From IMG/VR virus record IMGVR_UViG_3300043395_004142: 64,000 bases of DNA, one strand, 5' to 3'. This stretch comes from a virus. The notes beneath the pieces were generated by a model, which saw only the letters and a program-made list of their open reading frames with translations, made no database searches and was not told the DNA's origin. How positions within the stretch are numbered: the stretch's first letter is position 1; the number at the start of each line of letters is the position of its first letter. The translations under genes and the position numbers were made by a program. Positions 2,064 through 60,129 of this stretch are shown here, in pieces.

Positions 2064-3068
2064 ATGTTCCTTCGTGGGATCAACTTTGGCCATGTCCTAA
2101 ACGCCTCAGGTGCACGCGGGTTTTTTGGGGAGGCGTATTGGTTTCACCGCTACTTTCGCCCCTTTGGCCTTGATTACGCGGGCTCAACCCTCGTCTGCAA
2201 AACAGTGACAGCGGATCCTCGGGCGGGGAACATGCCGCTCGATGAAGGGTTGCAACCGCGGGAAGCGATCCCCAAGTGCATCGTGGTTCGACCCTGGAAA
2301 GGTGTCGCACTCAATGCTGTGGGCCTTTCGAACCCTGGGGCGGAAGCCTACTTGGAGCGGGTGGTCGCGCTCTCTTCTTCGCGAGCCATGGGGGATCCGT
2401 TCATGATGTCCTTCATGGCGGTTCACCCGGAGAGGCCCGAGCGGCTTGCGGAGATCATCTCGTTCGACGCCACCCTGCGCAAGTACATAAGGCTCTTGCG
2501 GCACAGGAAGTTCGGCATTCAGATCAACCTTTCGTGCCCCAACGTCGGGCTCGACCCGGCCGGGCTCTTGAAGGAGGGGCAGCAAGCGCTGACCATTCTT
2601 GGGCAGCATAAGGTCCCGCTCCTCGTGAAGATCAACGCGCTCGTACCCCCAGACGTAGCGGTGGAACTAGCGGCGCACCCTGCTTGCGATGGTCTCGTGT
2701 GCTCGAACACGATCCCGTGGGGGAAGATGGCGGACAAAATCCCCTGGAAGAAGCTCTTTGGAACCGAGACTTCGCCCCTTGCGTCACTTGGAGGTGGCGG
2801 GCTATCCGGGAAGCCTTTGCTCCCCATCGTGCGCGATTGGGTCTATGCCGCGCGTGGCTCTGGCTTCAAAAAAGCCATTGTGGCCGGCGGTGGCGTCCTA
2901 TCCAAGGCGGACGCAGACTCCCTCCTGGACGTAGGTGCGGACGCGATTGAACTTGGGTCCATCTCCATGCTCCGACCGTGGAGGGTTCACGGAGTCATCC
3001 AGCAGATCAATCAACGCTTCGAGCACGGTGTTGACCCGTACACGACAACAGAAAGTACCACCCCATGA
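2064..3068 (+). CDS. pyrD: dihydroorotate dehydrogenase, family 1 (Cys active-site base)
   Basis: Motifs LNASGxxG, NAVGLSNPG, NLSCPNV (catalytic Cys) and GGG..L...DA..L.GA match class-1 DHODH. The ORF track begins at TTG 2001, but ATG 2064 fits the conserved N-terminus. The stop overlaps the pyrC start (ATGA). Confidence 0.8.
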   Translation: MFLRGINFGHVLNASGARGFFGEAYWFHRYFRPFGLDYAGSTLVCKTVTADPRAGNMPLDEGLQPREAIPKCIVVRPWKGVALNAVGLSNPGAEAYLERVVALSSSRAMGDPFMMSFMAVHPERPERLAEIISFDATLRKYIRLLRHRKFGIQINLSCPNVGLDPAGLLKEGQQALTILGQHKVPLLVKINALVPPDVAVELAAHPACDGLVCSNTIPWGKMADKIPWKKLFGTETSPLASLGGGGLSGKPLLPIVRDWVYAARGSGFKKAIVAGGGVLSKADADSLLDVGADAIELGSISMLRPWRVHGVIQQINQRFEHGVDPYTTTESTTP

Positions 3069-4111
3069 CCCCCATGACCCCCGTGACAATCCGACGCCCC
3101 GACGATCTGCATGTTCATCTCCGCGAAGGAGACATGCTCAAGAGAGTAGCCCCCTATACAGCAGAGCTATTCGGGCGGGCCCTCATCATGCCCAACACCT
3201 CAAAGCCCATCGTCACAGCCGAGGATGTGAACCGCTACCGAGGAGAGATCCTTCAGGCCACACAAAAGCATCGGTTCCAGCCCCTCATGACGATCAAACT
3301 CCTCGACCGCACTACCCCCCAGATTGTGCGGGAGGCAAAACTCGCAGGGGCGGTTGCCGGCAAGCTCTACCCCGCGGGCGTGACCACCAACTCAGACGAC
3401 GGGGTCAGGTATATACAAAGTCTCTACGATACCTTTGAGGTTATGCAAGAGGTCGGGATGGTTCTTTCGCTTCATGGGGAGGCCCCGGAGGCGTTCTGTC
3501 TTGACCGGGAAGAGGCGTTCCTAGGTATCCTCAAGGACATTGCGAAGACGTTCCCGCGGCTTCGTATTGTCCTTGAGCACGTGACAACGAACGCTGCGGT
3601 GGAAACCGTCCAGGCTCTACCAGAAACGGTGGCGGCGACGATCACGGCGCACCACTTGGTCTTGACGCTTGACGATGTTGTCGGCGGGAAGATCAACCCA
3701 CACAACTTCTGTAAGCCGCTCGCGAAGAGGCCCGCGGACCGATCCGCGCTTATTGAAGCCGCTTTTAGTTACTCGCCCAAGTTCTTCTTTGGGACAGACT
3801 CGGCGCCGCATATACGCGAGACGAAGGAGTGTGCTGCGGGTTGCGCGGGTTGTTTCACGGCGCCTCTTGCTTTGGAGCTTCTGGCCCATGTAGCGGACGA
3901 GCACGGGTTATCTTTGGAGGGCATTCAAGGTTTTACTTCCGAGTATGGTGCGCAGTTCTATGGGCTTCCATTGAACGAGGGGATGGTGACATTCGTCCGT
4001 GAGCCTTGGACGGTCCCTGATGTCCTTGACGGCGTAGTTCCCTTTTGGGCTGGGCAGACGCTTAATTGGAGGTGCAAGTTCCTGCACGGGGGGCCTTTCT
4101 ATAGCGCGTAG
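3065..4111 (+). CDS. pyrC: dihydroorotase, type II (E. coli-like)
   Basis: DLHVHLREGDM, MPNT, KLYPAGVTTNS, HGE, TAHHL and FGTDSAPH are diagnostic class-II DHOase motifs. The gene is about 348 aa. Confidence 0.85.
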   Translation: MTPMTPVTIRRPDDLHVHLREGDMLKRVAPYTAELFGRALIMPNTSKPIVTAEDVNRYRGEILQATQKHRFQPLMTIKLLDRTTPQIVREAKLAGAVAGKLYPAGVTTNSDDGVRYIQSLYDTFEVMQEVGMVLSLHGEAPEAFCLDREEAFLGILKDIAKTFPRLRIVLEHVTTNAAVETVQALPETVAATITAHHLVLTLDDVVGGKINPHNFCKPLAKRPADRSALIEAAFSYSPKFFFGTDSAPHIRETKECAAGCAGCFTAPLALELLAHVADEHGLSLEGIQGFTSEYGAQFYGLPLNEGMVTFVREPWTVPDVLDGVVPFWAGQTLNWRCKFLHGGPFYSA

Positions 4112-4389
4112 AAATCTTATGCGGCGCCAGGGGTGTGCCGGACGCCGCGATCAAACCAGCGTTGTTTATACAGCTCTTCCACACGGGGGTTTTCCCGGAT
4201 GGGAGAGCCAATACGAACCCTGTTCAGATCACGGATCTGGACGTAGGGTACGAGTATCAGAACCGGAAGGTCCCTGTGTATGTGCCGGTTGGGGGTTCGA
4301 TTATCATCCCTGCCTCATCACGGTCGATGCTTTCGTTTTAGCAGGGGGCGATAGCGAAGTTTGCAGAGGTAGGGATCATCCGAGCACGG

Positions 4390-5403
4390 ATGTTCTATCA
4401 GCCGGAGAGATTTGCCACGGGGGGTTTGCCGCCGGCATCGGAGTTCCCTGCGGGGACGCATGTTTGGAACACGGATGACAACGCTCCAAACTGGTCCGAT
4501 GGGACAGCATGGCACTCGGGGGTGGGCGGGCCGGCAATTCATGGAGCGACACACGCGACGGGCGGTACGGATGCGTTGACGGTCAATGGGACGACAGCGA
4601 CCAACAATCCGTCCACGACGGGCGCGACGATCAATTCTGGGGTCGCCGTTGTAGGGGTCACGGACCCCGGGCATATCCATTCATTGACCGATCCTGGACA
4701 CGTTCATACCGTTAACGCGACCACGGCAGTAAACAATGCCAGCGTTATGCCCGCCTGGTACTTCATTGAGAACTCTGAGGTAGCCGGGGCTGTGATGGGA
4801 GCGATTGCTCAGAATGTTGCCGGGCCCGTGGCACCTACTGCGCAGGCCGGCATACCTCGGCCAATGAACGTCACGTTCCCAGTTGGTTGGGTCGGTGGCA
4901 CTGTGACAATCGAGGGCATCGGAAGAGTCGGGCAGGTTATCTCAGAGACGTTCGTAAACCCTGGCGGGGGTGGAACCGTTGTAGGCCAAGTCCCCTTTGT
5001 GACCCTTTCAAACTTCACGAACTCCGCTCCGGCAGGGGGAGCCGGGACGAGTGCCACTATTGTCACCAGGGATGCTTACGCGGTTCCGCACGACAATGTA
5101 GTGGCCTTTCTGAAGGTTAGCATTGATGGGACCATAGACAGCTTCAACATTTCGGACACGGTAAACGGGGTGTTTGAACCGAGCGGGAATCATCACGGGA
5201 ACCACGGCATAGAGGTGTGGTACACCTACTCGCACACCGTCACTCAGGCAGCGCACTCACACACGGCGTCCACGGCGACGACCGGTGCCTCCGTGGCTTC
5301 TCACGCGACCGGGGTGGTGGTCACCGACTCTGGACATTCACACGGCGTGACTGACCCAGGGCACGTGCATACACAGAACGGGCATACACATACGTTGAGC
5401 TAG
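4390..5403 (+). CDS. tail-fibre-like protein with repeated TDPGH[IV]H / GHxH motifs
   Basis: 337 aa, rich in G/T/A/N/V. TDPGHIH, TDPGHVH, DSGHSHGVTDPGHVHTQNGHTH and a GATHATGGTD segment recur. The composition is typical of receptor-binding fibres. Confidence 0.5.
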   Translation: MFYQPERFATGGLPPASEFPAGTHVWNTDDNAPNWSDGTAWHSGVGGPAIHGATHATGGTDALTVNGTTATNNPSTTGATINSGVAVVGVTDPGHIHSLTDPGHVHTVNATTAVNNASVMPAWYFIENSEVAGAVMGAIAQNVAGPVAPTAQAGIPRPMNVTFPVGWVGGTVTIEGIGRVGQVISETFVNPGGGGTVVGQVPFVTLSNFTNSAPAGGAGTSATIVTRDAYAVPHDNVVAFLKVSIDGTIDSFNISDTVNGVFEPSGNHHGNHGIEVWYTYSHTVTQAAHSHTASTATTGASVASHATGVVVTDSGHSHGVTDPGHVHTQNGHTHTLS

Positions 5404-5949: not shown

Positions 5950-6226
5950 CGCCTCGCCTTTCCCACGTTAGGTGTGCTATAAAAAATCGCGACAAGCAAG
6001 GTTTGCTTCTGAAATCCAAGCACCTTGCAGACCTGATCCCATCAGCCCTTAGGGATGAGCCTGTACGTTCCCGGATAACACATTGGCTCCCGAACCCGCC
6101 CCTGCGAAGGCGGTAAGCACGGAGCCATGGGAGGCGTTGATCCCGTCCCTCGTGTAACCTGTCCTACCTCTGGTGACCCCAAAGAAAGTTTGGGATCCCT
6201 TCCCGTTGGGGATCGTAGAGAAGGGC

Positions 6227-7549
6227 ATGGCGAAGATTGACCTCACAATCAAGACGACCTACCTCCCGAATTGGGGCGCCGCGGAAGGGATCCGCGAATT
6301 GGTTCAAAACGGCCGTGACGCCGAGGTCGAGCACAACGCTCCCCTTACGGTCGATTGGTACAACGACACCCTCCGCATTGAGAACGAGGGGACGACGATG
6401 CCGCTTAAGGCGCTCCTCCTCGGGCACACAACCAAGCACGGAAATTCCGAGATGATCGGGAAGTTTGGGGAGGGCCTCAAACTCGGCGTCCTAGCGCTCG
6501 TGCGCGCAGGGCATCCCGTCAAGATCCGCAACGGCGCGGAGGTATGGCTCCCCAAGATCACGCGCTCGGATACCTTCGACGAGAACATCCTATCGTTCTA
6601 CGTAACCGGCGGGCGTGAGGGAAAGAACCGCGTCCGTGTCGAGGTGGGGGGCATCACAAAGGAAGCCTGGGAGAAGATGCGCGAGGGCTTCCTCTTCCTC
6701 GCAAAGCCGAAGAAGAACGAGATGATCTCGACCTACAGTGGGACGCTGCTCCTTGGAGAGCAGCACAAGGGCAGGATCTACGTGAAGGGGATTTTCGTCC
6801 AGACAGATTCAGAAGCCTCCTTCGGCTACGATCTCCGCGACGCGGAGCTGGACCGTGACCGAAAGATGGTCGAAGCGTACAACCTTCGATACCATACACG
6901 GAACATCTTTCTCGACGCAATGAACAAGCAGCCGAGCCTGCACACACAGTTCGATGAAATGCTCCAGGCCCCTACACTGGAAGTCATAGGCATCGAGCCG
7001 TTCTACACGAACGGAATCCCGGACGCTGCCGTGGATTACGTGACGGATGCTTTCCTCAAGCGCCACGGGGAGGACGCTGTTCCGGTGTCTTCGCTGGCGG
7101 AATCGAAAGACATCGAACACCTTGGGAAGAAAGGCGTCATCGTTTCGAAGCAGCTCGGCACCGTGCTCGCGAAGAAGCTAGGGGACGCCATGACGGTCCG
7201 TGAGCGCCTCTCGAAGGAGGAGCGGATGCGCTATAGCTGGGCAGATGTCACCCCAGACGAGCGAGAGAACCTTACGGAAGGGATTGCGTTGGTCAACGCG
7301 GTCGAGCCGCTAACCCTCGATCAGGTCGAGATCGTAGACTTTCGCTCTGATACCATGTGGGGGCAATTCAAGGAAGGGAAGGTATTCCTCGCCCGCAAGG
7401 TTCTTGCCGATCGCGACGAAACCCTCCGCATCCTTGTCCACGAGGTTGCTCACAGGCAGGGGTTCGACGGGGACAAGGGCCATGTCATGCGGATCGAACA
7501 CATCTGGAAGATGATCGTTCGCAACCTCCGAACAAGTGAAGGTCGCTGA
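6227..7549 (+). CDS. GHKL (Bergerat-fold, MORC/Hsp90-like) ATPase domain protein with C-terminal HExxH motif
   Basis: N-box ELVQNGRDA, G1 IENEGTTM and G2 GKFGEGLKLG are present. HEVAH lies close to the C-terminus. GAGAAGGG precedes ATG 6227; the ORF track starts at GTG 6173. Confidence 0.65.
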   Translation: MAKIDLTIKTTYLPNWGAAEGIRELVQNGRDAEVEHNAPLTVDWYNDTLRIENEGTTMPLKALLLGHTTKHGNSEMIGKFGEGLKLGVLALVRAGHPVKIRNGAEVWLPKITRSDTFDENILSFYVTGGREGKNRVRVEVGGITKEAWEKMREGFLFLAKPKKNEMISTYSGTLLLGEQHKGRIYVKGIFVQTDSEASFGYDLRDAELDRDRKMVEAYNLRYHTRNIFLDAMNKQPSLHTQFDEMLQAPTLEVIGIEPFYTNGIPDAAVDYVTDAFLKRHGEDAVPVSSLAESKDIEHLGKKGVIVSKQLGTVLAKKLGDAMTVRERLSKEERMRYSWADVTPDERENLTEGIALVNAVEPLTLDQVEIVDFRSDTMWGQFKEGKVFLARKVLADRDETLRILVHEVAHRQGFDGDKGHVMRIEHIWKMIVRNLRTSEGR

Positions 7550-8738: not shown

Positions 8739-10526
8739 TTAGGCGCGGCCCTCAGGCGTGTCCGTGCCGGCCCTTCTCATAGGGACGGAGGGGCACATTC
8801 GAGGGGATATGGCACCTGCGACCGGATCTGTTGCGGATGTCTTCAGTACGGACCGGAAGCTCTCGGCTTGGTCCCGGGTGATGTTGTACCCCAAGACATA
8901 ATGGGCAAAGACCTCCGCGAAAGCCTCATCGATATTGCTTGCTCCGTAGGTGGAGACTGGAGCAACGGGGGCTGGATTCCTCTCGTAGCTCTCCATCCAT
9001 TCGAGCGTGGCCGGATCACTCTTGAGCTTCTCCTTGGCCCGTTCGTTGTGCTTTTGGACGGCGAAATCAATATAGATGAGGGCCTCACTCACGATCTGGT
9101 CAATGAGCTGGTGAGCCTCCGCGAGCCACTCCTCTTTACCCTCTGGCCTGAGGAGAGAGAAGTTCTCAAAATGCTCTAGGAGCCTCGCCTTGGTCTTATA
9201 CACGTCATCCTTGAGGCTATCCACGTCAGACCCGAGATCCTTATCCACATCGAGGGACATGACGGCAGCAATGATGTCGTCCCCAAAGGCCCAGCCGTCC
9301 TTCCCCACGTTGTCTCGGGCAAGAGAGGTCAGGTTCGCGATATCGCCGTGGACGACATGATACACAAGCCGCTGCTCAGCACGATCTTGGGCTCGGAGTA
9401 CTTGCCGTTTCGAGTCGTCGACGTCCTTATCCTTGAACATCCGAACGTTGACGGTCGGCTTTGATGGGCGAGGCTTCGTGTGCGTCTTGACCAGGGCCTC
9501 GAACTTAGCCCGCTGGGCTGACCCCATCTGCTTGAACCAGAAGCGGTGTCCCAACTCGTGGACCATCAGCTCCACGATGAACACGCCAGGACGCGAGAAA
9601 ATCGAGACGGTGTCCTTTCCGATCTCGTACCAGCCCCCGGTGCCCCCGCCCGTGTTCGGGTTCACACCCCCACAGTCGTTGCACTGGATGAAGACGTTGC
9701 CATACCACGCCTTCTCGAATCCTTTGCTCTTCAGTCGTGTATACGCTTCAGTAAGATACCTCACATACTTCTTGATAAGATCCGTGTCGACGGTCCGATC
9801 ATCTACGATGACCTTGATCCCATGGAGATCAAACTCCCTGAAACCCCCGGTCTCCTGTAGGGCTCGCTCCGAGTAGTTCGCCGCGAGCATCTCGTAAATG
9901 CGGTCGACCCATTTGTTAGCGTCCCAATCGAGCTTACTCCGCTTGACCAAACGGAGAGCGGCTTTCTCGAACCCTACCCTATGCAAGAACTCGTACTTGA
10001 CCCGATACGCGCTATCACTTGTAAGGGCGGCCATTTCTTCCGGCGTCGCAGCCTTAAGCGTCTTTTGCACGAGGCGCTCAAGGGCACCGTTGTCAACAGA
10101 CCACTCCGATTTGAGAAGATCGCCTACGGTAGCCGTGGCCTCCTTCATCTTGTCGAAGATCTGTTGACGGGCATACCAGATGAGATAGGCTTTAGGGTCA
10201 CTGAAGTCGACGTACCCTGAAGTGAAGGGGTCGTACTTCTTGGCGACGGCCTCCAGATAGTCCTTGGCCATCCCGACCCGGTTCTTGATGGAGTCTCGGG
10301 CGGTGTCGAGGGTAACCAGCCCCTCAAACTCCTTCAGGAATCGATCGAAGAATGGAAGCACCCTGTCACGGATAACCCAGCTCCAGTAGGAGGGGTCATC
10401 CTTGAGAGGCTCCTTGAGGATGGCCTTGAGGCCATCCTTTTGGGTCTTGAACCACTTCAACGAGAGGGTGGCAGCGAAAACCAGCCTCTGGTAGCGGCGG
10501 GCGACTTTAAGGGCGATGGCATCCAC
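8739..10526 (-). CDS. HExxH zinc-metallopeptidase-like protein (paralog of 24582..26126)
   Basis: 595 aa. MVHELGHRFWFKQM and a downstream DEAFAEVFAHYVL helix parallel FTHEVGHRFWFRNL and TEAFAEAFRFYIL in the paralog. Confidence 0.6.
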   Translation of the reverse strand: MDAIALKVARRYQRLVFAATLSLKWFKTQKDGLKAILKEPLKDDPSYWSWVIRDRVLPFFDRFLKEFEGLVTLDTARDSIKNRVGMAKDYLEAVAKKYDPFTSGYVDFSDPKAYLIWYARQQIFDKMKEATATVGDLLKSEWSVDNGALERLVQKTLKAATPEEMAALTSDSAYRVKYEFLHRVGFEKAALRLVKRSKLDWDANKWVDRIYEMLAANYSERALQETGGFREFDLHGIKVIVDDRTVDTDLIKKYVRYLTEAYTRLKSKGFEKAWYGNVFIQCNDCGGVNPNTGGGTGGWYEIGKDTVSIFSRPGVFIVELMVHELGHRFWFKQMGSAQRAKFEALVKTHTKPRPSKPTVNVRMFKDKDVDDSKRQVLRAQDRAEQRLVYHVVHGDIANLTSLARDNVGKDGWAFGDDIIAAVMSLDVDKDLGSDVDSLKDDVYKTKARLLEHFENFSLLRPEGKEEWLAEAHQLIDQIVSEALIYIDFAVQKHNERAKEKLKSDPATLEWMESYERNPAPVAPVSTYGASNIDEAFAEVFAHYVLGYNITRDQAESFRSVLKTSATDPVAGAISPRMCPSVPMRRAGTDTPEGRA

Positions 10527-12182: not shown

Positions 12183-14378
12183 ATGTTCAAAGCTGGCGAA
12201 GCCGCGCGAATCAAAGGGTCTGATCGGATCGTCACCATCCTACCCAACGATCCCATTGGGTCAACACCTCCGTGGCCCATCGCTACTAGCGAGGGGGTCA
12301 TGAACGAGATCGATCTGACCCCGGCCCACCCTTCCGTTCTTGCCACATGCGACGGACGAGATCTGTCCGCAGAAGCCTTCCACGCAGGCCAGGAGGCCAG
12401 GAAAGCCCTCGCAAAGGAGGAAGCGGACGGACGGTCCTTCGTGCTTATGGAGAAGGTCGAAAAGACCCTATCAAAAGCCTCGTTCGACTACAACGGTCAC
12501 TGGAAGAGCGGGGCTCTCCTCGACAAGAATTTCAAGGTGCTGAAGGACTTGTTCCTCGGCCCCAGGTCCCTGAATCGGAAGGACGCCGAGGATCTCGTGC
12601 GCGCCGTCAAGGCTAAGGCGCCCATGGATCGGTGGGTTCGGATCGACTCTGTCCTTCGCATGACGCTGCGGAAATGCCCTCTCTGCGGTGAGGACGACTT
12701 TACCATAGAGACGAACGGCCTCACGGTGAGAATCGCCGGGGATCCGTGCAAATTCGCGAACGGGCTCCCCCACACCGAGTGGGAGCTGAACGTGCCGAGC
12801 GGCAAGCTCGTGGTCGCCAACGACCTCCGGGAGATCTTCCCGCTGCCGGAGGACAAAGACTACGATATCAACACCATCATGGGCTGCCGTCAGACGGCCC
12901 TGGCCTATGCGGCGAATGGGATGTCCCACGCCTTCGTGGGGAACACGTGCCCCGGCGTCTACAAGTGCGGGGACGGTCTGTTCAAGATCGCCAACGAGCC
13001 GCAAGACGAGAAATGGGACGCGAAGAAAGAGAAGTACGTCAAAGTCAAGCCCAAGCCCCCGTTCGAGGGAGAGCAGGTAGCGGGTATCTGCACCGACCTG
13101 TGGTGGTACTCTATCTGCGATCACGACGAGTACAAGCGGCGGTGCAAGCGCTTCAAGGTGAAGAGGGACCGCAACGTCGAGGTCGTCGATGTCAAACCCG
13201 GTGTCTACCGCTTCCGCCACGACGAACACGCCCGATCATACGAAGGGCCGGGAGAGAGCGTCTACACGCGGTTCGAGTGGGTACGGGAACCCGATCCGGT
13301 CAAGGACTTCCTTGCCCACTACGAGGAGGTCGAGGTCAACGCGAACGCCTACGTACAGGCGCAGGTTGCCCGCTGGCCGACACTTTACGGCAAGGCCGAT
13401 CCCCTCAACGTAAAGCGGACAACGGTTCCTTGGTCGAAGATGACTCCAGAGGATCGGCATCACTCGTGGAAGCGGGTAGCTGACGACGTGTTCTGCACGA
13501 TCGGCGGGGGTGTCGAGTGGCACGAGAGAGGCTTCCCACGGGCCAAGGTCGATGCCTCCATCCCCGACGTGGATCCGCCGACCTTCCGGGCGCAGTACAA
13601 CTGGTACCCGTTCTCGAAGCCTTACGGAGGTCTGTTCGCGCCCACGACGCTAGCGCCCTCGTTTGCGAAGCTCGCCTTCCGTGTTCTGGAGTCGGTCATT
13701 TCCTTTGGGACGACCGTGCGGGATGACAATCATTCCCGTGATGTCCGCCACGTTCGAGGGCGAATGATGGTGGCCGTGAAGCGGTACCGCGAGCTGGCCA
13801 AGCGGCACCCGGAGCAGGCCGATCCTGAGTACGTAGCCTGGCTCAGTCAGGAGGGACGTGCCGAGGCGTGGGTCGAGAACTTCCCTCTTGGCCCGGAGTT
13901 CACCGAGAAGCATCGGGAGCACGCGAAGAAGCAGAGGTGGGTCCCCGAGGACGCCTACGCGGTGGCCTTCGACGCTCGCAAGCTTACGGAAGGGCACTTC
14001 GCATGGCATCCCAAGCAGGGCGGATGCTGGGCCCACAAGAAGGACGCACATAGGTATGCTCTTAGAGCATGGGAGGACAACGGGCAGCCCCCCGAGCACA
14101 ATTGCTTCTGGAACTGCCACGCGACCAACACATCCGTGCCGCTATACTCCGTCGCCCGCGTGGTGAAGGTCGGAGAGGTATCTCACATGGGCGAGACCCT
14201 CGTCGAGATCGCCTACGACTACGGAACCCCGTGGATGCAGGACAAGAAGAAGAGGAAGGCACTGGCAGAGGCAAAGGAGCAGGCCGCGATCAAAGTTCTG
14301 TCGAAGGAGGAGTACGAACGACTCCTGCCAGAGGCCATCAAGTTCTACGAGGAGATTGAAAGCGCGGTCGAGGTTTAG
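12183..14378 (+). CDS. large hypothetical protein (731 aa) with CPLCGEDD Cys cluster
   Basis: Long ORF of non-biased composition. Minus-strand ORFs across it are Arg/Pro-rich shadows. Confidence 0.6.
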   Translation: MFKAGEAARIKGSDRIVTILPNDPIGSTPPWPIATSEGVMNEIDLTPAHPSVLATCDGRDLSAEAFHAGQEARKALAKEEADGRSFVLMEKVEKTLSKASFDYNGHWKSGALLDKNFKVLKDLFLGPRSLNRKDAEDLVRAVKAKAPMDRWVRIDSVLRMTLRKCPLCGEDDFTIETNGLTVRIAGDPCKFANGLPHTEWELNVPSGKLVVANDLREIFPLPEDKDYDINTIMGCRQTALAYAANGMSHAFVGNTCPGVYKCGDGLFKIANEPQDEKWDAKKEKYVKVKPKPPFEGEQVAGICTDLWWYSICDHDEYKRRCKRFKVKRDRNVEVVDVKPGVYRFRHDEHARSYEGPGESVYTRFEWVREPDPVKDFLAHYEEVEVNANAYVQAQVARWPTLYGKADPLNVKRTTVPWSKMTPEDRHHSWKRVADDVFCTIGGGVEWHERGFPRAKVDASIPDVDPPTFRAQYNWYPFSKPYGGLFAPTTLAPSFAKLAFRVLESVISFGTTVRDDNHSRDVRHVRGRMMVAVKRYRELAKRHPEQADPEYVAWLSQEGRAEAWVENFPLGPEFTEKHREHAKKQRWVPEDAYAVAFDARKLTEGHFAWHPKQGGCWAHKKDAHRYALRAWEDNGQPPEHNCFWNCHATNTSVPLYSVARVVKVGEVSHMGETLVEIAYDYGTPWMQDKKKRKALAEAKEQAAIKVLSKEEYERLLPEAIKFYEEIESAVEV

Positions 14379-22343: not shown

Positions 22344-23285
22344 ATGTTGACAACACTGAACAAGGAAGCCCTGGCAGAGCTGGCCTTCAAGATCTGGAGC
22401 GCTATCGGGTTCAGGCGCGGCCTAACGGGGCAAGAGGTCCGAGAGGCCATTGAATCGGCCTCAACGGGTGCTGATATTTTGGCACTCCTGCTCGTAAGTC
22501 CAGATGGGCAGATCGTTTTGCAGGGGCTGGCTCGATGGGCTTGGGAAAGCTTCCCCTCGATTCTCCTCGGGCACAAGTATGCCGCTGCTCTTCTCGCGAC
22601 AGAGACCCCTCTGAGCATCCTTCGCGAGGTGGCCCCTCCATGGGAGGGGTTCATGATCGACGTACCCACGGGATTACTATGGGTGAACGATCCTGCCCTC
22701 GGGCGAGACGTGGAAGTGCGGCGCATCCTCGCATGTCAGATCATGCACGAGGGATCCCCCGGCCCGTCACCAGGAGGGCTTAAATGGGCGTGGCTTGCCT
22801 TCACTGAGTCCCACGTATCCCTCTGGCGCTACGGGGTGGACGCCGAAGGACTTCTCCCACCGGATCTGGAAGGTAACGCTTGGGAGGGTTCGCCGCTGCT
22901 CCTCGACACCACCGATCAAGACGACCGAACGTGCACGCTCATTGGCCGGCTGATCCTCAACACTTGCCTCGCCATGCGGGACCCGGATTTCATCCGAGAG
23001 GCAGGACCTGGGCACGAAATCCACCGGCGAGCCGCCGCTCGACAAATGCGCCCCCTGCGTCCCGTACCACGGATCTTCCGCGTTGGAAAGGACGTCTCTA
23101 TCGACCTTCGAGGTGTGGTCCGGAACTACCTTCAACACGGAAAGAAGCTCCAAGCAACTCAATATGTCATAGGACACTGGAAGAGGGTACCTTACGGACC
23201 GAATAGCTCGCTTCGCAAAATAGTCTGGATCATGCCATACGAGCGCGGCCCAGATACGACAGAAATGGTTGGGATCCGCCTCTAA
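22344..23285 (+). CDS. hypothetical protein
   Basis: 313 aa, non-biased. Confidence 0.55.
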   Translation: MLTTLNKEALAELAFKIWSAIGFRRGLTGQEVREAIESASTGADILALLLVSPDGQIVLQGLARWAWESFPSILLGHKYAAALLATETPLSILREVAPPWEGFMIDVPTGLLWVNDPALGRDVEVRRILACQIMHEGSPGPSPGGLKWAWLAFTESHVSLWRYGVDAEGLLPPDLEGNAWEGSPLLLDTTDQDDRTCTLIGRLILNTCLAMRDPDFIREAGPGHEIHRRAAARQMRPLRPVPRIFRVGKDVSIDLRGVVRNYLQHGKKLQATQYVIGHWKRVPYGPNSSLRKIVWIMPYERGPDTTEMVGIRL

Positions 23286-39932: not shown

Positions 39933-41951
39933 GTGCCCATCTCCACACCCCTTAGGATGGCACGGTACGCCGAGACTTATGCGACCTATGTAGGCATGAG
40001 CACAGCTTTTCGTGTCGCGCACCGGTATCTGGCCGCCGCAAAGTATGACCACATTGACTTCAAACCACCGAAAAGCGTTGCCGAAACAGCGGCAAAAGGC
40101 TTGGAGTACCGCAAGAAGCAGACTGACAAAGCCGGTCTAACCCCCTCGGAAGCCTCGAAAGAGGGCATTGGTTCTGGGGTGCAACGGGCGGTGAATCTGA
40201 AAAACCGGGACAATGTGAGCCCCGAAGTTATCCGTCAAATGAGTGCCTTCTTTGCAAGGCACGAAAAGAACAAGAGCATCTCCCCCGAGCATCGCAATGA
40301 GCCGTGGAAAGACAAAGGCTACGTGGCTTGGTGCCTTAAGGGGGATACGGACGTTCTCTTGGCCGATGGAACTTGGCTACCTATCTCCAAGATCGTTGAG
40401 GACAAGCTGAGTGTGAGGGTCTGGTCCTACAATGAGGCGACCAAGACCTTTGAACCGAAAAAAGTGGTCGGATGGAGTGTTGCCCCCGCAAGCCTTGAGG
40501 ACTTCTACATCGTCGGGAAGCACAAGACAATGCGGCAAGGTATCAGTGATCGCACTTTTCTGGCCGCTACCGCCGAACACCCATTTTACGTAGAGGGGGA
40601 ATGGGTTGAGGCTAAGGACATGAAAGGGCGTGTTCTTAGCATCGTAGATCGGGGCCTGGACCCGATCTCGGAACAAGTCCTTCTCGGTACCCTTCTTGGA
40701 GATGCTTACATTTGGAAGTCTAGTGACAGTGCGGGCACGCTTCGCATGGCCCACGGGTCTGACCAACGAGAATACCTGCATGAAAAAACTCGCCTACTAC
40801 ACCCGTTAGTCTGTAGTCAGTTTGACACTCCTAACGAGAGTGGTTTTGGGCGAATGGGATTGGTAAAGTGCTGCACTTATACGGCAAGCACGCTCTACCT
40901 AAGTTACATCCGTGATCGTTTCTACGACGAGGAGGGTGTCAAGAGAGTTACCCCCACACTATTGAGGTCACTTGAAGACGTTGGAGTAGCCTTTTGGCTC
41001 ATGGATGATGGGAAACTCAAATTCTCGGAGAGAGACGGCCACTCCTCATGGATTCTGCATACCGAAGGGTTCGATGAAGAAAGTGTCGAAAACATCGTAC
41101 AATTTCTGAGGGGCCGTTATGAAATAGATGCTCGCGCCCAAAGGCGGGAGAACACGGACGGATCCACCGTATACTTTACCGTAGAAGGTACTCGGAAGAT
41201 GATGGCTCGGCTAGCACCCTTCTTCCACCCCTCTATGCGCTACAAGCTACTACCCGAATACCATGACGTTCCTTACGTATTAGCGGATCATTCCCCAAAA
41301 AGCGAGTTGGTGCTGTGTCCCCAACCTGTGACTCGGTTTGGGAAAGCTACGGATGAATACACAAGCAAGGCCGCTCGGAAGCCGTATAAATGGGAGTGGC
41401 GGTATAACCTTGAAGTGGAAGGCAACCACAACTTCATCGCCAATGGGGTGCTGGTTCACAACTGCCTTTGGGGCGGAGACCCTGGCAAAGCCTGGGCGGA
41501 CAAGATCAAAAAGCAGATGGAGGCCGCCGACCAAAAGACCGCGTCCCTTGGTGCAGGGGCCCTCACCCATGAATTGATGAACGATCTGGCTTCCGCCTAC
41601 CGGGGCAAGCGTATGCGCGATGCTATCCGTGACATGGAGCTTGCCGAGGTGCCCCAGGTAATGGCCGAAGAAGTCTACCGCAAGGTAGGGCAACACGCCG
41701 ATGAGGTTCGCGGTAACCTCCACCGTCTTCTCTCAGGCGTGCGAGTCGAATTCGAAGGAGGAGACCGGCCTGGCTGGGTCTGCTCCGACGAAACCGGCAC
41801 CATCTTCGTCCCGGCAGACGGAAGCCCTCCTCCACACGGAGGCTCGATCGCTCTTCGATCTGTAGCGGGCGCTATGCACGAATGGTGCAAAACCGATGTC
41901 CTGAGATATGGTGGTGCGAATCTCACAAAGATGATGAAGTCCACGGAGTAA
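39933..41951 (+). CDS. hypothetical protein interrupted by a LAGLIDADG intein
   Basis: Exteins total about 295 aa (res 1-133 and 511-672). Predicted spliced junction: ...KDKGYVAW|CLWGGDPGKAWADKI. Confidence 0.6.
   Translation: MPISTPLRMARYAETYATYVGMSTAFRVAHRYLAAAKYDHIDFKPPKSVAETAAKGLEYRKKQTDKAGLTPSEASKEGIGSGVQRAVNLKNRDNVSPEVIRQMSAFFARHEKNKSISPEHRNEPWKDKGYVAWCLKGDTDVLLADGTWLPISKIVEDKLSVRVWSYNEATKTFEPKKVVGWSVAPASLEDFYIVGKHKTMRQGISDRTFLAATAEHPFYVEGEWVEAKDMKGRVLSIVDRGLDPISEQVLLGTLLGDAYIWKSSDSAGTLRMAHGSDQREYLHEKTRLLHPLVCSQFDTPNESGFGRMGLVKCCTYTASTLYLSYIRDRFYDEEGVKRVTPTLLRSLEDVGVAFWLMDDGKLKFSERDGHSSWILHTEGFDEESVENIVQFLRGRYEIDARAQRRENTDGSTVYFTVEGTRKMMARLAPFFHPSMRYKLLPEYHDVPYVLADHSPKSELVLCPQPVTRFGKATDEYTSKAARKPYKWEWRYNLEVEGNHNFIANGVLVHNCLWGGDPGKAWADKIKKQMEAADQKTASLGAGALTHELMNDLASAYRGKRMRDAIRDMELAEVPQVMAEEVYRKVGQHADEVRGNLHRLLSGVRVEFEGGDRPGWVCSDETGTIFVPADGSPPPHGGSIALRSVAGAMHEWCKTDVLRYGGANLTKMMKSTE
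40332..41462 (+). mobile_element. intein (377 aa) with LAGLIDADG homing-endonuclease domain
   Basis: Block A CLKGDTDVLLADGTWLPISKIV. LAGLIDADG-like LLGTLLGDAYI and AFWLMDDGKL. C-terminal EVEGNHNFIANGVLVHN followed by +1 Cys. Confidence 0.8.
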
Positions 41952-42393: not shown

Positions 42394-42453
42394 ACCCCCG
42401 AGGGGATCCCAACCTAGACTTGTCGTTTTATCCTACATCAGGAACCTTGAGAG

Positions 42454-43071: not shown

Positions 43072-43415
43072 TACCTACGCCGGTCAAGGGGTCCGATCCC
43101 AAGGGGATTCATCAAGGCGGCCCTCTCCAAGGGGTTCCCACGACAAAGAAGGTCTTGCAGTCAGTATCCGAACTAACCTGACATCTCACGACTGGCCAAG
43201 ACGTGGTTTTAACGGCATTTGACCCCGAACTAGGGGCCGCGCACCTAAGAACCAGAAAGCCGAAGGCGAGAGTTAGGGTTCGAAAATCTAACGGAAAGGC
43301 TTGCAAGGGGTTCTTTTTTCGGTCACGACTAGGATCAGTGAGGGTTCGAATCGTAGGATCAAGGAGAACCCCGGGTTACCGGGATCCTGAACCCCGCAAA
43401 GGATGGAGATAAACC

Positions 43416-44075: not shown

Positions 44076-44159
44076 AACTGAACGAACGTACCGGTCTTTC
44101 GCACGATCTGTTAAGAGTCCTCCACCGGGATAGCCCGGCGGTGTAATAGATGACCACCG

Positions 44160-50162: not shown

Positions 50163-51086
50163 ATGGCTATCCTTCGGCACCTCATCTCAATCAACGACCT
50201 GACACCCGATGAAATCAAAAGTCTCTTCTTCCACGCGAACCTACTCCGAGGGTGCGAGCACCTCTGGGACCCCTTACAAAAGAAGCCCCTAGCCGGCAAG
50301 ATCCTCGCCTGCCTCTTCTACGAGCCCTCGACACGAACGAGCAGCTCGTTCATCGCCGCTATGGCACGCCTTGGAGGCACGGTCATCCCCATTACGCAGG
50401 GCGTCCAGTTCTCTTCTGTGTCGAAGGGCGAGACCCTGGAGGATACGATCCGCACCCTCGGACAATACGCCGACGCCATCGTCCTCCGGCACCCCGTAGA
50501 AGGATCCGCGAAGTCCGCTGCTGCGGTCTCCCCTGTTCCCGTGATCAACGCGGGCGACGGAGCCGGAGAGCACCCAACGCAGGCCCTCTTAGACCTCTTC
50601 ACGATGCGTGACGTGAAGCATGACCTCGAAGGAAAGACTATCGCCCTCGTCGGGGACCTCCTCTACGGGCGGACCATTCACTCCCTCGTGCGCCTCCTCC
50701 CACGAGAAGGCGCCAAGCTCATCCTCGTGAGCCCACCCGAACTACAACTCCCCATCGAGCTACGAAGCTTCGTACCTGCGGACACCGTAGAGGTCCATAG
50801 CCTCGGTGACGCCATCGAGCACGCGGACATCGTATACATGACCCGGGTCCAGAAAGAGCGCTTCCCCTCTCTGGAAGCCTACGAGCATGTAAAAGACGCC
50901 TGTGTACTCACGCGCGCCCTTATGCAGAGGGCCAAGCCCGATGCGGCCATCATGCATCCATTACCACGCGTAAATGAGATCGAACGCGAGATCGATGACG
51001 ACCCTCGCGCCGTCTACTTCACACAGGTCAGGAACGGCATGTTCGTTCGTATGGCCATCCTCCAAAGACTCATCCAACAACAATAA
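50163..51086 (+). CDS. pyrB: aspartate carbamoyltransferase catalytic subunit
   Basis: EPSTRTSSSF (STRT motif), GEHPTQALLD (HPTQ) and MHPLPR (HPLP) are present. 307 aa. GAGGGG SD upstream. No pyrI follows. Confidence 0.85.
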   Translation: MAILRHLISINDLTPDEIKSLFFHANLLRGCEHLWDPLQKKPLAGKILACLFYEPSTRTSSSFIAAMARLGGTVIPITQGVQFSSVSKGETLEDTIRTLGQYADAIVLRHPVEGSAKSAAAVSPVPVINAGDGAGEHPTQALLDLFTMRDVKHDLEGKTIALVGDLLYGRTIHSLVRLLPREGAKLILVSPPELQLPIELRSFVPADTVEVHSLGDAIEHADIVYMTRVQKERFPSLEAYEHVKDACVLTRALMQRAKPDAAIMHPLPRVNEIEREIDDDPRAVYFTQVRNGMFVRMAILQRLIQQQ

Positions 51087-56658: not shown

Positions 56659-56889
56659 GGAACACGTCCCGCAAAAAGGCTATCGACCGACACTGACCGA
56701 TGTTAACGCCAGGGGTGATCTTCGGGAGCGGACCCCGTCATTGATCGGGGTCCCACGGCCACCCTCACGGTCAGCTTTATCGACGTCGAACCATTGCATA
56801 CCTGCCTCTACACCGTGACAGGAACTCGATCCCAAAAACATCTCTCTCGGTTGGGATCGTGGGTCGGATTCGTCGTAGGGATCCTCAAG

Positions 56890-59800
56890 ATGAAAAACCG
56901 TTACCCTGGCAAGTGCGGCAAATGCGGCGTCAACGTTCCCGTGGGTGCGGGTGACTGGACCGCGGGGGTTACCACCTGCGCTGCGTGTGGTGGTGCACCC
57001 AAGGCTGAGGAGAACCGGGTCCGGTTTACCCTCGCCGGGCACCAGGCGGCCGTGAAGCCCCTGGGTTACCTCGACAGTAAGTTCAATGACTACCGAGCGG
57101 CCGTGAATGGTAGCCGGTTCGACGGCAACACGAAGTCCTACCTTGTAGACTTCGACAAGGTCGCGAAGGTCGTTGCGGCGCTTCAAGCCGCCGGGTTTGT
57201 CGTGGATGTCTCTCCAGAGGTGGCCGCACGGGCACAGGCAAAGGCTTCTCAAATCCACGTCGATGTCGCAGGGGCGGATCTCCGAGCGGACAAGGCGGAT
57301 GAGATTCTCCGTAAGCGGGGGCTGTATCTCTTCCCATTTCAGCGGTCGGGCGTCAAATGGCTCGCCTCCCGTACCGGGGCCTTGCTCGCCGATGAAATGG
57401 GGCTCGGGAAAGCCCAGCCAATCTCCGAGCCCGTCCTCACTCCATCAGGTTGGCGTCCTATCGGGGATCTCCGTGTTGGAGACGAGGTGATTGGCTCAAA
57501 CGGTTTGCCTACCAGAGTTACGGGCGTGTTTCCGCAAGGCGCGAAGGAAATCTTCGAAGTCACCCTGACGGACGGTGCGAACACGAGATGTTGTGAGGAG
57601 CACCTGTGGAGCGTTCAAACGCCGAATGATCGATTCCGTGACGGAAAACATCGAGTTATGTCGCTCAAAAATATCATGGAGAGCGGGCTCCAACACACGT
57701 CTGGGTTTAAGTGGTTCGTACCGGTAGTCGAACCGGTTCAGTTCTCGGAGAAAGAATTTCCCGTGCACCCTTACGTGCTAGGAGCGCTCATCGCGAACGG
57801 CAATTTGGGAACTTCGACGCTTCACAGTGGTCAGGCTGAACAACGCTCGATGATGGCGCCTTATCTCCCGAATGGCTTGAGCTTTAACTTCTCGGAAGGT
57901 GTTACCTATCGCATTGCGACGGAACATGCTGGTGTCCCAAACCAGCTAACCCGATCGATTGAAGCGCTCGGCCTCCAATTCACCGAGAGTCACACCAAGT
58001 TCATCCCCGGAATGTACCTCTTCGGATCAGTACAACAACGCCGGGATCTGCTCGCTGGTCTTATCGACAACGACGGCACCATCTCCAAGGACGGCGCGAC
58101 CATCGAGTACAACACAGTGTCACCTCAATTGGCTAAAGATGTGGTCGCTCTTGTTAGATCACTAGGTGGATCTGCGTGGGTGTCAACTCGAATCCCGAAG
58201 TACACTTACAAAGGAGAGAAGAAAGAGGGGAAGGTCGACTATCGGATCCGTATGGCTCTTACATTCTGTCCCTTCCGAGTGTCTTGGAAGCTTGATCGAT
58301 ACGTGCCTCGGTCCAAGTACCCCCCGGCGCATGCAATTGAATCTATCAAACCCATCGGAACCGAAGAGTGTGTATGCATCTCTGTAGATGCTGCCGATCA
58401 TCTGTACGTGACCAAGGACTATATTGTCACGCACAACACGATCCAGGCGCTGATCTCGATCCCGGAGGGAGTCCCCGTGCTCGTGATCGGCCCCGCGGTG
58501 GCCAAGGGCGTATGGGCGCGTGAAGCCGCCAAGTGGCGCCCGGACCTCAAGGCCAACGTCCTCTCGGGGCGGGGTTCCTTCCGATGGCCCGAGCCCGGTG
58601 AGATCCTGATCACGAACTACGACATCCTGAGTGACCTCCCTGAGACCGAGGTGGCTCCGGCGAATGTCGTCGTGATCGCTGATGAGGCCCACGCGGTCAA
58701 GTCGACTAAAACAGGCCGAGGAAAGCGCTTCCGGGTCATCTCTACCCTTGCCCGCAAAGCTGGGGGGAAGGTTTGGCTTCTTACGGCAACCCCTCTCCTG
58801 AACAAGCCCACGGAGCTTTGGAGCATCCTTGGGGCGGCGGGCCTCTCGACCGAGGCTTTCGGATCGTGGAAGAACTTCGTGGGGGTCTTCAACGGGCACC
58901 AGGACGACTACGGGTATGTATGGGGAACTCCCGATCGTGAGGTTATAGGAGAGCTTCTGCGCAAGGTCCAACTTCGGCGCCTTCGCGCTGAGGTGCTTCC
59001 TGACCTGCCCACCAAGCAGTGGCGTGAGATCCCTGTCACCCTCGATAGCAGCACTCGTAAGCAGTGTGACAAGGTTCTGGAAGCCCTGGCCAAAGGTGCT
59101 TCGAAAAAGAAGGTCAAGGGATCAGACCTGACGGCGGAGCAAGCGGAAGCCTTGCTCACGGATCTCGGAGCTATCTCCTCCAAAGACTGTCCTGCGTTCG
59201 AGGAGATGGCGAAGGCTCGTGCCGCCTTGGCGAAAGCCAAAATCGAGGCGATGCTTCAAATCGTCGAGGAGTACGAGGAGCAGGAAGAACCCCTCGTGGT
59301 CTTCTCGGCCCACCGCGCCCCCATCGATCTCTTGGAGGGTCGTGAGGGGTGGGCGGTCATCACGGGTGATACTCGCCCGGAGGACCGCACGAAGATCGAG
59401 GATGCCTTTCAACGTGGAGAACTTCGGGGCATTGCTTGCACAATCAAGGCGGGGGGTGTAGCTATCACCCTCACTCGTGCTTCTCATGCGCTTTTCGTAG
59501 ATCTGGAGTGGACCCCGGCACTCAACGCGCAGGCGGAGGATCGGATCTGCCGCATCGGACAGTCGCGAGGGGTGATCATCACTATCCTTGTAGCAGATCA
59601 CCCCCTCGACATAAGGATCGCACAGCTTCTCGCTCAGAAGCGAGTCTACATTGAGGGGTCCGTGGATGCGGCCCGCTTGGTCAATGGGGTAGACCCTGAG
59701 ATTCCGGTCATGCCGGAGATAGACTTTCAGGCTCTTGCGGCCAAGGCCGCAGAAGAAGCCGAGAAAGCCGAGAGGGCACTTCTTGCCTCGAAGGAGCGTC

Positions 59801-60129
59801 AGGCCCTTTACGAGGCGGAGAAGGCAGCGGCACAGGCCGCTAAGCGTGCAATCCGTGAAGACTTGATGGCTCCCGGCCGTCGACCGGCGAAGACGGCTCG
59901 TGAGGAGTGGGCCGCGGAAGCTCTAGGGATCCTGGCGGGTATGGATCCGGATCGTGCCCGTGAGCAAAATGGGATTGGTTTCAATGGGGCAGATGGACAG
60001 ATGGGGCACAATCTTGCCCGTCAAGTGTATCTCGGTTTGACTGAGGCACAGTGGCAGCTCGCCTTGGAGATTTGCCCCAAATACTGGCGCCAGGTAGGTC
60101 GTCCCCCAGCAGAGAAAATTGAGTCATGA
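56890..60129 (+). CDS. SNF2-family DNA helicase with N-terminal zinc ribbon, interrupted by an intein in motif I
   Basis: CGKCG...CAACGG ribbon. LADEMGLGK|intein|TIQALI reconstitutes DEMGLGKT. Further along: DEAH-like VVIADEAHAVKS, LLTATPLLNKPTELWSIL and helicase-C QAEDRICRIGQSRGV. The ORF track offers an upstream GTG/TTG at 56794. Confidence 0.75.
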   Translation: MKNRYPGKCGKCGVNVPVGAGDWTAGVTTCAACGGAPKAEENRVRFTLAGHQAAVKPLGYLDSKFNDYRAAVNGSRFDGNTKSYLVDFDKVAKVVAALQAAGFVVDVSPEVAARAQAKASQIHVDVAGADLRADKADEILRKRGLYLFPFQRSGVKWLASRTGALLADEMGLGKAQPISEPVLTPSGWRPIGDLRVGDEVIGSNGLPTRVTGVFPQGAKEIFEVTLTDGANTRCCEEHLWSVQTPNDRFRDGKHRVMSLKNIMESGLQHTSGFKWFVPVVEPVQFSEKEFPVHPYVLGALIANGNLGTSTLHSGQAEQRSMMAPYLPNGLSFNFSEGVTYRIATEHAGVPNQLTRSIEALGLQFTESHTKFIPGMYLFGSVQQRRDLLAGLIDNDGTISKDGATIEYNTVSPQLAKDVVALVRSLGGSAWVSTRIPKYTYKGEKKEGKVDYRIRMALTFCPFRVSWKLDRYVPRSKYPPAHAIESIKPIGTEECVCISVDAADHLYVTKDYIVTHNTIQALISIPEGVPVLVIGPAVAKGVWAREAAKWRPDLKANVLSGRGSFRWPEPGEILITNYDILSDLPETEVAPANVVVIADEAHAVKSTKTGRGKRFRVISTLARKAGGKVWLLTATPLLNKPTELWSILGAAGLSTEAFGSWKNFVGVFNGHQDDYGYVWGTPDREVIGELLRKVQLRRLRAEVLPDLPTKQWREIPVTLDSSTRKQCDKVLEALAKGASKKKVKGSDLTAEQAEALLTDLGAISSKDCPAFEEMAKARAALAKAKIEAMLQIVEEYEEQEEPLVVFSAHRAPIDLLEGREGWAVITGDTRPEDRTKIEDAFQRGELRGIACTIKAGGVAITLTRASHALFVDLEWTPALNAQAEDRICRIGQSRGVIITILVADHPLDIRIAQLLAQKRVYIEGSVDAARLVNGVDPEIPVMPEIDFQALAAKAAEEAEKAERALLASKERQALYEAEKAAAQAAKRAIREDLMAPGRRPAKTAREEWAAEALGILAGMDPDRAREQNGIGFNGADGQMGHNLARQVYLGLTEAQWQLALEICPKYWRQVGRPPAEKIES
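57412..58437 (+). mobile_element. intein (342 aa) with two LAGLIDADG motifs, Ala at position 1
   Basis: Starts AQPISEPVLTPSGWRPIGDLRVGDEV (block-A-like). LGALIANGNLG and LLAGLIDNDGTI. Ends YIVTHN with +1 Thr, the T of GKT. Confidence 0.7.

Follow-up and report, generated by a model that had tools for sequence, protein, structure and literature searches.

De novo purine and pyrimidine biosynthesis genes have been reported from many huge phages, and a likeness of these gene sets to the ones carried by very small symbiotic bacteria has been noted (Al-Shayeb et al., 2020, Nature 578:425, PMC7162821). One genome from that study, SR-VP_PHAGE_64_16 (296,433 bp, from vernal-pool mud), which was included in its terminase and capsid trees, carries two overlapping genes, _131 and _130, that are annotated as "uncharacterized protein" and "dihydroorotase, homodimeric type", respectively. 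Apart from the general sentence in that work, we found no dedicated description in the literature of pyrB, pyrC or pyrD genes in phages, or of a dihydroorotate dehydrogenase (DHODH) from the Patescibacteria. The subject of the present work is a stretch of 64,000 nucleotides (referred to below as the window) from the IMG/VR record IMGVR_UViG_3300043395_004142, which encodes an aspartate carbamoyltransferase (ATCase; PyrB), a dihydroorotase (DHOase; PyrC) and a divergent DHODH-like protein, corresponding to three consecutive steps in the synthesis of uridine monophosphate (UMP). The window is likely part of the genome of a tailed "huge phage", from a lineage that has long carried its own genes for steps two to four of UMP synthesis. 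The relevant features of the window are as follows:

2064..3068, plus strand: pyrD-like gene for a divergent flavin mononucleotide (FMN)-type dihydroorotate dehydrogenase, 334 aa (PF01180, motifs, AlphaFold2 model and Foldseek)
3065..4111, plus strand: pyrC, homodimeric-type (bacterial type II) dihydroorotase, 348 aa (TIGR00856, PDB alignments)
3065..3068, plus strand: ATGA overlap of the pyrD stop and pyrC start (read from the sequence)
50163..51086, plus strand: pyrB, aspartate carbamoyltransferase catalytic chain, 307 aa, no pyrI (TIGR00670, motifs)

The identification of these genes as ATCase, DHOase and DHODH, as made in the original prediction from the sequence alone, is borne out by their intact motifs and by family scores that lie far outside the range of chance matches, and the same is true of the predicted overlap of pyrD with pyrC and its coordinates. 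In accccATGAcccc, the ATG of pyrC (3065–3067) and the TGA stop codon of the pyrD-like gene (3066–3068) share 4 nt. An identical 4-nt overlap is present between genes _131 and _130 of SR-VP_PHAGE_64_16 and also in a Patescibacteria metagenome-assembled genome (MAG; locus L008). We propose that the two genes are translationally coupled by means of this overlap. Such a joining of pyrC to pyrD is not known from E. coli. The first open reading frame (ORF) on the plus strand is open from a TTG codon at 2001, contains an internal ATG at 2064 and ends at 3068. Because the N-termini of 33 homologs all conform to the pattern M-x-L/V-R-G-x-x-F/W-G, with which the sequence MFLRGINFG of the window protein agrees, the start of the pyrD-like gene is placed at the ATG at 2064. 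The gene call by the Joint Genome Institute (JGI) for this gene is 278 aa long, as against 334 aa here, and the first FMN lysine is lost from it; the call apparently starts at the internal Met57, dropping the N-terminal strands (334 − 56 = 278). With this short call and the label "uncharacterized protein" in SR-VP_PHAGE_64_16, the DHODH-like family is systematically under-annotated.

The PyrC protein scored 385 bits against the model TIGR00856 ("pyrC_dimer"; cut-off 293), with residues 7–337 aligned to positions 2–340 of the 341 in the model, i.e., it is a full-length match at the equivalog level for homodimeric dihydroorotase. It could be aligned from end to end with the enzymes of known structure from V. 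cholerae (315 bits; 5VGM) and E. coli (270 bits; 1J79). In the alignment with the V. cholerae enzyme, PyrC retains H16-x-H18, K100 (within AGKLYPA), the T107–T108 loop, H137, H172 and D245-x-x-x-H249, and K100 is the counterpart of the lysine that is carboxylated in the E. coli enzyme. The residues K100, T107, T108, H137, H172, D245, and H249 are also invariant in eight relatives of this protein. The zinc ligands of the binuclear metal site, the carboxylated lysine and the Thr–Thr substrate loop are thus all shared with the E. coli and V. cholerae enzymes, from which the window PyrC differs in that it belongs to a phage-borne and Patescibacteria-associated lineage. A PyrC homolog showing 41% identity was also observed in a giant-virus MAG contig (GVMAG-S-ERX556019-34).

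The PyrB protein, whose gene lies about 46 kb from the pyrD–pyrC pair, contains the OTCace_N and OTCace domains and scored 336 bits against the ATCase model TIGR00670 (cut-off 237), whereas the ornithine carbamoyltransferase models gave 138–157 bits, which is below their own cut-offs. The motifs STRT, KGE, RHP, HPTQ, GRT, RVQKER, and HPLPR are all present and could be aligned with the ATCase domain of human CAD, which is its best match in the PDB (287 bits), followed by archaeal and plant enzymes; the E. coli and B. subtilis ATCases gave 226 and 165 bits, respectively. The window protein shares the STRTS variant and all substrate-binding motifs with ATCases of the CAD, archaeal and Chloroflexota type (e.g., the human CAD domain, PDB 5G1N), but it is a stand-alone protein of 307 aa that is not fused to other CAD domains and has no accompanying PyrI. 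The prediction that pyrB occurs here without pyrI proved correct: no PyrI domain, and hence no adjacent pyrI of the E. coli PyrB6–PyrI6 type, was found among the 78 ORFs of the window, comprising nearly all those of at least 100 aa, that were scanned against the Pfam and PHROGs profiles. Relatives of PyrB with 67–69% identity are found on ORFan-rich contigs (L105). It is about 57% identical to the members of a tight cluster of Chloroflexota ATCases, and in the tree the phage-like copies lie outside that cluster. The hint of a Chloroflexota host that PyrB provides is weak.

The assignment of the DHODH-like protein was made at the level of fold and catalytic residues. The Pfam profile DHO_dh (PF01180) matches ORF 2064–3068 with 58 bits (cut-off 27, E 8e-16), and the top sequence match in the PDB is the PyrD subunit of L. 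lactis dihydroorotate dehydrogenase B (DHODB; E 2e-7). The residue K46, the stretches LNAVGLSNPG and NLSC158PN, K189, SN215T, and the GGGLSG and GGG motifs align with this enzyme, and K46, N84, N155, C158, N160, K189, and N215, as well as the two glycine-rich motifs, are invariant in 34 homologs of about 50% identity. The residues N84, N155, N160, and N215 we take to be the orotate-binding asparagines, on the basis of the residue roles in the L. lactis DHODA and DHODB enzymes. In an AlphaFold2 model built upon the alignment of homologs (mean predicted local distance difference test score, pLDDT, 88.3), the best Foldseek match was again DHODB (1ep2_A, E 8.6e-15), and DHODB, pig dihydropyrimidine dehydrogenase (DPD) and class 1A trypanosomatid enzymes were all matched with E-values of about 1e-14 to 1e-13, at about 20% identity and template modelling (TM) scores of 0.6–0.7. 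The Pfam and Foldseek results together place the protein in the FMN-binding TIM-barrel fold of the DHOD/DPD superfamily, and by alignment it possesses the characteristics of class 1, namely a cysteine in the N-x-S-C-P-N loop, two FMN lysines and the asparagines. In relation to the L. lactis class 1B enzyme (PDB 1EP1-3), which is its best PDB match by both sequence and structure, the window protein is thus alike in folding as an FMN-type TIM barrel and in possessing the FMN lysines, the four asparagines for orotate binding and the catalytic Cys of the S-C-P-N loop. It differs in its low similarity (about 22% identity, TM about 0.65–0.70), in insertions after the first lysine and before GGGLSG, and in having no gene nearby for PyrK, the flavin adenine dinucleotide (FAD)/2Fe-2S subunit. 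No FAD/NAD-binding or DHODB Fe-S domain that could indicate the partner expected for class 1B was detected in the scanned ORFs, and a PyrK-like gene is likewise absent from the called genes around the homologs in four related loci (L001, L003, L008, and L010). As there is no PyrK partner, a class 1B-type coupling to NAD+ is unlikely, and fumarate or another soluble compound is a possible acceptor for the predicted DHODH.

The pair formed by these two genes is not confined to the window. A search with the DHODH-like protein yielded 926 relatives, of which the best 120 showed 48–57% identity and were 278–364 aa long. In 48 of 90 related loci, the DHODH-like gene is followed immediately by PyrC in the same orientation. 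Among them are ORFan-rich contigs of 100–550 kb, in which PyrC follows directly after the DHODH-like gene (L001, 99.7 kb; L010, 549 kb). In another such locus (L003, 108 kb, also found on a 469-kb contig), the gene order is pyrB–pyrD–small ORF–pyrC, with purE nearby. In IMG/VR, the DHODH-like family is present on contigs of 120–436 kb, PyrC of the window type on contigs of 156–529 kb, and PyrB on contigs of 231–529 kb and also on one of 27 kb. In the largest of these (IMGVR_UViG_3300035182_002586, 529 kb), PyrC and PyrB are about 260 kb apart, i.e., they are split as they are in the window. A homolog of the PCRF/RF-1 release factor was observed near the pyr genes of L003.

The nearest published counterpart, SR-VP_PHAGE_64_16, shows the same gene order, the same 4-nt overlap and a similar ORFan-rich, high-GC setting as the window, and its _131 and _130 proteins share 52 and 58% of their residues with the DHODH-like protein and PyrC of the window, respectively. 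It differs in having pyrE 2 kb from the pair, whereas the window lacks pyrE but contains pyrB at a distance of 46 kb; in the parts of the SR-VP_PHAGE_64_16 genome that were examined, pyrB did not appear. A pyrE gene beside the pyrD–pyrC pair is also a feature of relatives of the window. In view of the overlapping pyrD–pyrC genes and pyrE of this phage, and the recurrence of PyrB, PyrC and the DHODH-like protein in phage-like contigs of 100–550 kb, the original expectation that these genes would make up an unusual auxiliary set does not hold for this class of virus: the module is already found in published huge phages, and the window provides a further example of it rather than a new principle. 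The module is conserved across phage-like genomes and under purifying selection. A tblastn search of INPHARED with the DHODH-like protein gave no match, and the PyrC matches in that database were to short, unannotated or host-like records, which were not used as evidence for carriage by phages. A further match, in the record of Pseudomonas phage Y5, is presumably to host DNA and was set aside in the same way.

The same protein family also has cellular members. When GTDB was scanned with each species represented by a single genome, 167 loci were revealed, mostly from Patescibacteria MAGs, with 40–52% identity, and the likeness of the gene sets of huge phages to those of tiny bacteria (Al-Shayeb et al., 2020) is borne out here. 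The gene is widespread in Patescibacteria MAGs, and PyrC often comes right after it. In the MAG GCA_049325475.1 (JBMOLN010000001.1; locus L008), the pair has the 4-nt overlap and is situated among genes for BipA, a DEAD helicase, a Mur ligase, a penicillin-binding protein (PBP) and a RuvB-like protein, which is a true cellular context. The operon of the Patescibacteria shares with that of the window the protein family, the gene order and, in L008, the overlap, but it is embedded in housekeeping genes, whereas the window copy groups with phage-borne copies. The Patescibacteria are generally regarded as bacteria that do not make nucleotides de novo. The DHODH-like gene was in addition observed in two assemblies from the Vicinamibacterales (L085, and L090 with a contig of 2.5 Mb) and in a Nanoarchaeota MAG, as well as in several contigs of 114–431 kb that have been binned as "Gammaproteobacteria" and which may be mis-binned huge phages.

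The origin of the genes was examined by means of distance trees and composition. In a neighbor-joining tree of 94 DHODH-like sequences, the window protein was part of a clade of 12 taxa (bootstrap score 67 of 100), which is nested among Patescibacteria sequences and comprises, besides the window, SR-VP_PHAGE_64_16, two IMG/VR genomes, three ORFan-rich contigs and metagenome contigs from soil and peat. Other phage-like contigs were placed elsewhere in this tree, and their scattered positions suggest that several exchanges have taken place, the trees being midpoint-rooted and of moderate support, so that they do not settle the direction of transfer. The GC content, GC content at third codon positions (GC3) and codon usage of the pyrD-like, pyrC and pyrB genes are all within the normal range of the window. 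The possibility of a recent capture of these genes from a host is rejected in view of this native composition and the trees for the DHODH-like protein and PyrB. As the composition is native and the copies group with other phage-borne ones, the pyr genes are long-standing in the phage lineage. Judged by these trees, the pyrD–pyrC pair and pyrB appear to have different histories.

The viral affinity of the element is indicated by the rest of its gene content. The GC content of the window is 55–63% throughout, about 80% of the scanned ORFs have no Pfam match, and the 64 kb contain no tRNA and no ribosomal, cell-wall or other housekeeping genes. ORF 6173–7549 matches the RIIA-like family phrog_6077 (E 3e-57), and in tblastn searches it has matches in 110 phage records, one of which is annotated as "RIIA lysis inhibitor". 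Many HNH endonuclease families and an endonuclease VII are present. Several more ORFans of the window are common to loci that carry the pyr module, and ORFans are shared with IMG/VR genomes of 156–529 kb. The ORFan at 8739–10526 shows 78% identity with a protein encoded in IMGVR_UViG_3300013121_000005 (363 kb) and 37% identity with the product of a gene located 5 kb from the pyrB–pyrD–pyrC cluster of L003, and in related elements its homologs thus recur at distances of only a few kb from pyr genes. In IMGVR_UViG_3300013121_000005, four homologs of window proteins are clustered within 21 kb, including this ORFan, PyrB (58%) and ORFs 37316–38338 and 22344–23285. The window therefore shares genes and synteny with recognised huge-phage genomes, and we conclude that it is probably part of a large phage genome, this assignment being an indirect one in which the virion genes would lie outside the available part. 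The virus-like character of the region that had been predicted is in accordance with its shared ORFans, RIIA-like gene, HNH endonucleases and inteins and its lack of housekeeping genes and tRNAs, but terminase, portal and capsid genes are missing from the window. Similarly, ORFans and inteins are present in the window as described for the setting of pyrB, but the "virion-like genes" said to surround pyrB could not be confirmed. The same genome is present in two other public sequencing runs, SRR35532381 (100% nucleotide identity) and SRR35181285 (99.99%), over positions 40206–57594. A megablast search with 25 kb of the window against INPHARED (50,697 phage records) gave no match.

The interpretation that this is a huge-phage genome carrying orotate-forming enzymes has to be weighed against a number of observations that speak against it. 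None of the 78 scanned ORFs matched a terminase, portal or major capsid family in PHROGs or Pfam, a scan covering the 64-kb window, with about 7.5 kb of the source contig and the rest of the genome lying outside it. The source contig measures 71,572 bp, and the designation "huge phage" is therefore derived from its relatives. The pathway is incomplete here, as no PyrE, PyrF, CarAB, PyrI or PyrK domains were detected in the scanned ORFs and a phage PyrE query had no tblastn match in the window. The DHODH-like/PyrC pair is a normal chromosomal feature of the Patescibacteria. Lastly, the DHODH-like protein misses all of the NCBIfam equivalog cut-offs for DHODH (the best being PRK07259, with 69 bits as against 269; the class 1A model PRK02506 gave 27 bits against a cut-off of 301), and structurally it is as near to DPD as it is to the DHODHs of class 1A or 1B.

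The last of these observations indicates that the DHODH-like protein, judged by its sequence and predicted structure, branches deeply among the Cys-type enzymes of the DHOD/DPD superfamily and is not a standard 1A or 1B enzyme. The label "class-1 DHODH" given to it in the original prediction holds at the level of the fold and catalytic motifs only, as its model scores and its place in a divergent clade shared with the Patescibacteria do not support more. A bolder interpretation would be that the protein forms a subclass outside 1A, 1B, and 2 that functions without PyrK and maybe with a different electron acceptor, which together with the coupled PyrC is shared by the Patescibacteria and a lineage of huge phages. 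Through exchange of genes with ultra-small bacteria, these phages would have acquired a self-contained pathway to orotate that is insensitive to feedback; we consider this to be possible but rather doubtful. It could also be supposed that the pair does not serve orotate synthesis at all and functions instead in reductive pyrimidine breakdown or salvage, as a DPD with a cyclic amidohydrolase, or in the synthesis of modified bases. The scores far below the DHODH cut-offs, the failure to find PyrK and the presence of pig DPD among the best structural matches, in the same E-value range as true DHODHs, are all consistent with such a role. However, PyrC is above the equivalog cut-off for dihydroorotase and has all of the metal ligands and substrate-loop residues, in related phages the pair is accompanied by PyrB and PyrE, and the catalytic loop of the DHODH-like protein is S-C-P-N, as in DHODH, whereas that of DPD is S-C-P-H. 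A function other than orotate synthesis is thus improbable.

With regard to the nature of the element, the pyr genes could be carried by a non-viral extrachromosomal element, such as a megaplasmid or another large mobile element. The window has no virion hallmark gene and encodes TnpB, HicB, FitA-like antitoxin and DnaJ-domain proteins, and plasmid-like large elements were also recovered in the earlier survey (Al-Shayeb et al., 2020). Nevertheless, no replication-initiator, partition or conjugation domains are present in the scanned ORFs, the RIIA-like and fibre-like genes match those of phages, and the nearest relatives are IMG/VR viral genomes and the curated SR-VP_PHAGE_64_16, so that a non-viral element appears to us quite unlikely. 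That the window could be a piece of a cellular chromosome, from a Patescibacteria-like or other uncultured bacterium, with the pyr genes as ordinary housekeeping genes, is suggested by the cellular neighbourhood (BipA, Mur ligase, PBP, RuvB-like) of the overlapping pair in one MAG of the Patescibacteria, by the mostly Patescibacteria origin of the 167 GTDB loci and by the lack of capsid and terminase genes, but it is highly improbable for a 64-kb stretch that has no ribosomal, tRNA or cell-wall genes and a great majority of ORFs unmatched in Pfam, that encodes RIIA-like and fibre-like proteins as well as inteins and many HNH endonucleases, whose ORFans are shared with IMG/VR genomes of 300–360 kb and whose DHODH groups with phage-borne copies. 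Neither normal chromosomal flanks nor any loss of catalytic residues was found.

Returning to the interpretation as a huge phage, the three enzymes can be arranged into a putative route as follows. PyrB, as an ATCase trimer without PyrI, would join carbamoyl phosphate from the host to aspartate, and because there is no regulatory PyrI chain, it is probably free of inhibition by CTP and UTP. PyrC, as a binuclear-zinc homodimeric dihydroorotase, would close the ring to give dihydroorotate, which the DHODH-like flavoenzyme, with FMN and a cysteine base, would oxidize to orotate. The conversion of orotate to UMP would then be carried out by PyrE and PyrF of the host, or by phage copies encoded outside the window. 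The net effect would be that pyrimidines for replicating a very large genome are supplied outside the regulation exerted by the host. A feedback-insensitive supply of orotate in infection is, on the basis of the sequences, the most likely function of this module; we infer that its genes are expressed, that its enzymes are active and free of feedback control, with an electron acceptor of the kind suggested above, and that the phage would benefit from them. The title of a study on Lactococcus names the down-regulation of UMP biosynthesis as the major early response to phage infection (PMC10986495), and by analogy with that different system, a shutdown of UMP synthesis by the host is a plausible selective reason for such genes.

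The other features of the window that are referred to in this work are as follows:

4135..5403, plus strand: fibre-like gene with an in-frame TAG at 4339–4341 (homologs, AlphaFold2 model)
6173..7549, plus strand: RIIA-like phage protein (phrog_6077, E 3e-57)
8739..10526, minus strand: 595-aa ORFan with a HELGH (HExxH-like) motif (homologs on huge-phage contigs)
35533..37077, plus strand: TnpB-like protein (OrfB_IS605/Cas12f1-like TNB domain), 514 aa (domain matches)
39933..41951, plus strand: 672-aa intein-containing protein with Hint and LAGLIDADG_2 domains (domain matches)
56794..60129, plus strand: 1111-aa SNF2 helicase with a Hint/homing-endonuclease insert interrupting its SNF2 domain (domain matches)

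A tail-fibre-like gene was predicted to follow directly after pyrC, and a fibre-like gene does begin 24 nt past the pyrC stop codon; however, it is one TAG-interrupted gene extending over 4135–5403. The ORFs 4135–4341 and 4390–5403 are in one frame with the single TAG at 4339–4341 between them, and 20 homologs, mostly single ORFs of 393–550 aa, span both halves and have Q, H, E, D or N aligned with the TAG position. This TAG may have arisen by a nonsense mutation or an error in sequencing, or else it may be subject to read-through or suppression. A genome-wide recoding of TAG was considered and is not supported, as TAG ends 12 of 49 long ORFs and there is no suppressor tRNA in the window. The AlphaFold2 model of the protein has a confident beta-sandwich core at residues of about 110–290, with the His-x-His repeat regions being of low confidence. 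The best matches of the core in BFVD are uncharacterised proteins from uncultured Caudovirales (E 4e-11), followed by weaker matches to tail-fibre and collagen-like proteins, and no PDB structure was matched by the model with an E-value under 1e-3. The designation as a fibre-like phage protein is reasonable, if not proven.

The ORFan at 8739–10526, with its HELGH motif, is possibly a metallopeptidase, and the 731-aa product of ORF 12183–14378 has a weak match to the jumbo phages XacN1 and Vibrio phage D479. Other Pfam and PHROG matches include a phage-type ATP-dependent DNA ligase (phrog_114), an Rv2179c-like exonuclease and a beta-helix protein, together with HicB, FitA-like ribbon-helix-helix (RHH) antitoxin and DnaJ-domain proteins. 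The PHROG match of ORF 56794–60129 to the "terminase large subunit" was rejected, as the matches cover residues 180–552, i.e., the Hint/homing-endonuclease region. Directly downstream of pyrB is a gene for an HTH_31/HTH_3 protein (51169–51537, plus strand), which is also called in the identical Logan contigs, and a HicB-family antitoxin-like gene (48712–49173, plus strand) was observed upstream of it.

The present work adds to the published record the recognition of the pyrD–pyrC coupling as a conserved unit that is common to phages and Patescibacteria, of the DHODH as an unrecognised divergent subclass that is unannotated in a published genome, and of the separate history of pyrB, with the completeness of the pathway, in terms of the presence of pyrB and pyrE, varying between relatives. 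The most interesting part is the DHODH-like subclass, and the practical value of this work also lies in this enzyme, which represents a conserved family of at least 900 proteins that escapes the curated DHODH models. If the module is active, then very large phages carry the committed and normally feedback-controlled steps of pyrimidine synthesis without the regulatory subunit of the host, which goes beyond a tuning of salvage, and these steps could sustain the replication of their very large genomes and might also work against hosts in which infection causes UMP synthesis to be shut down.

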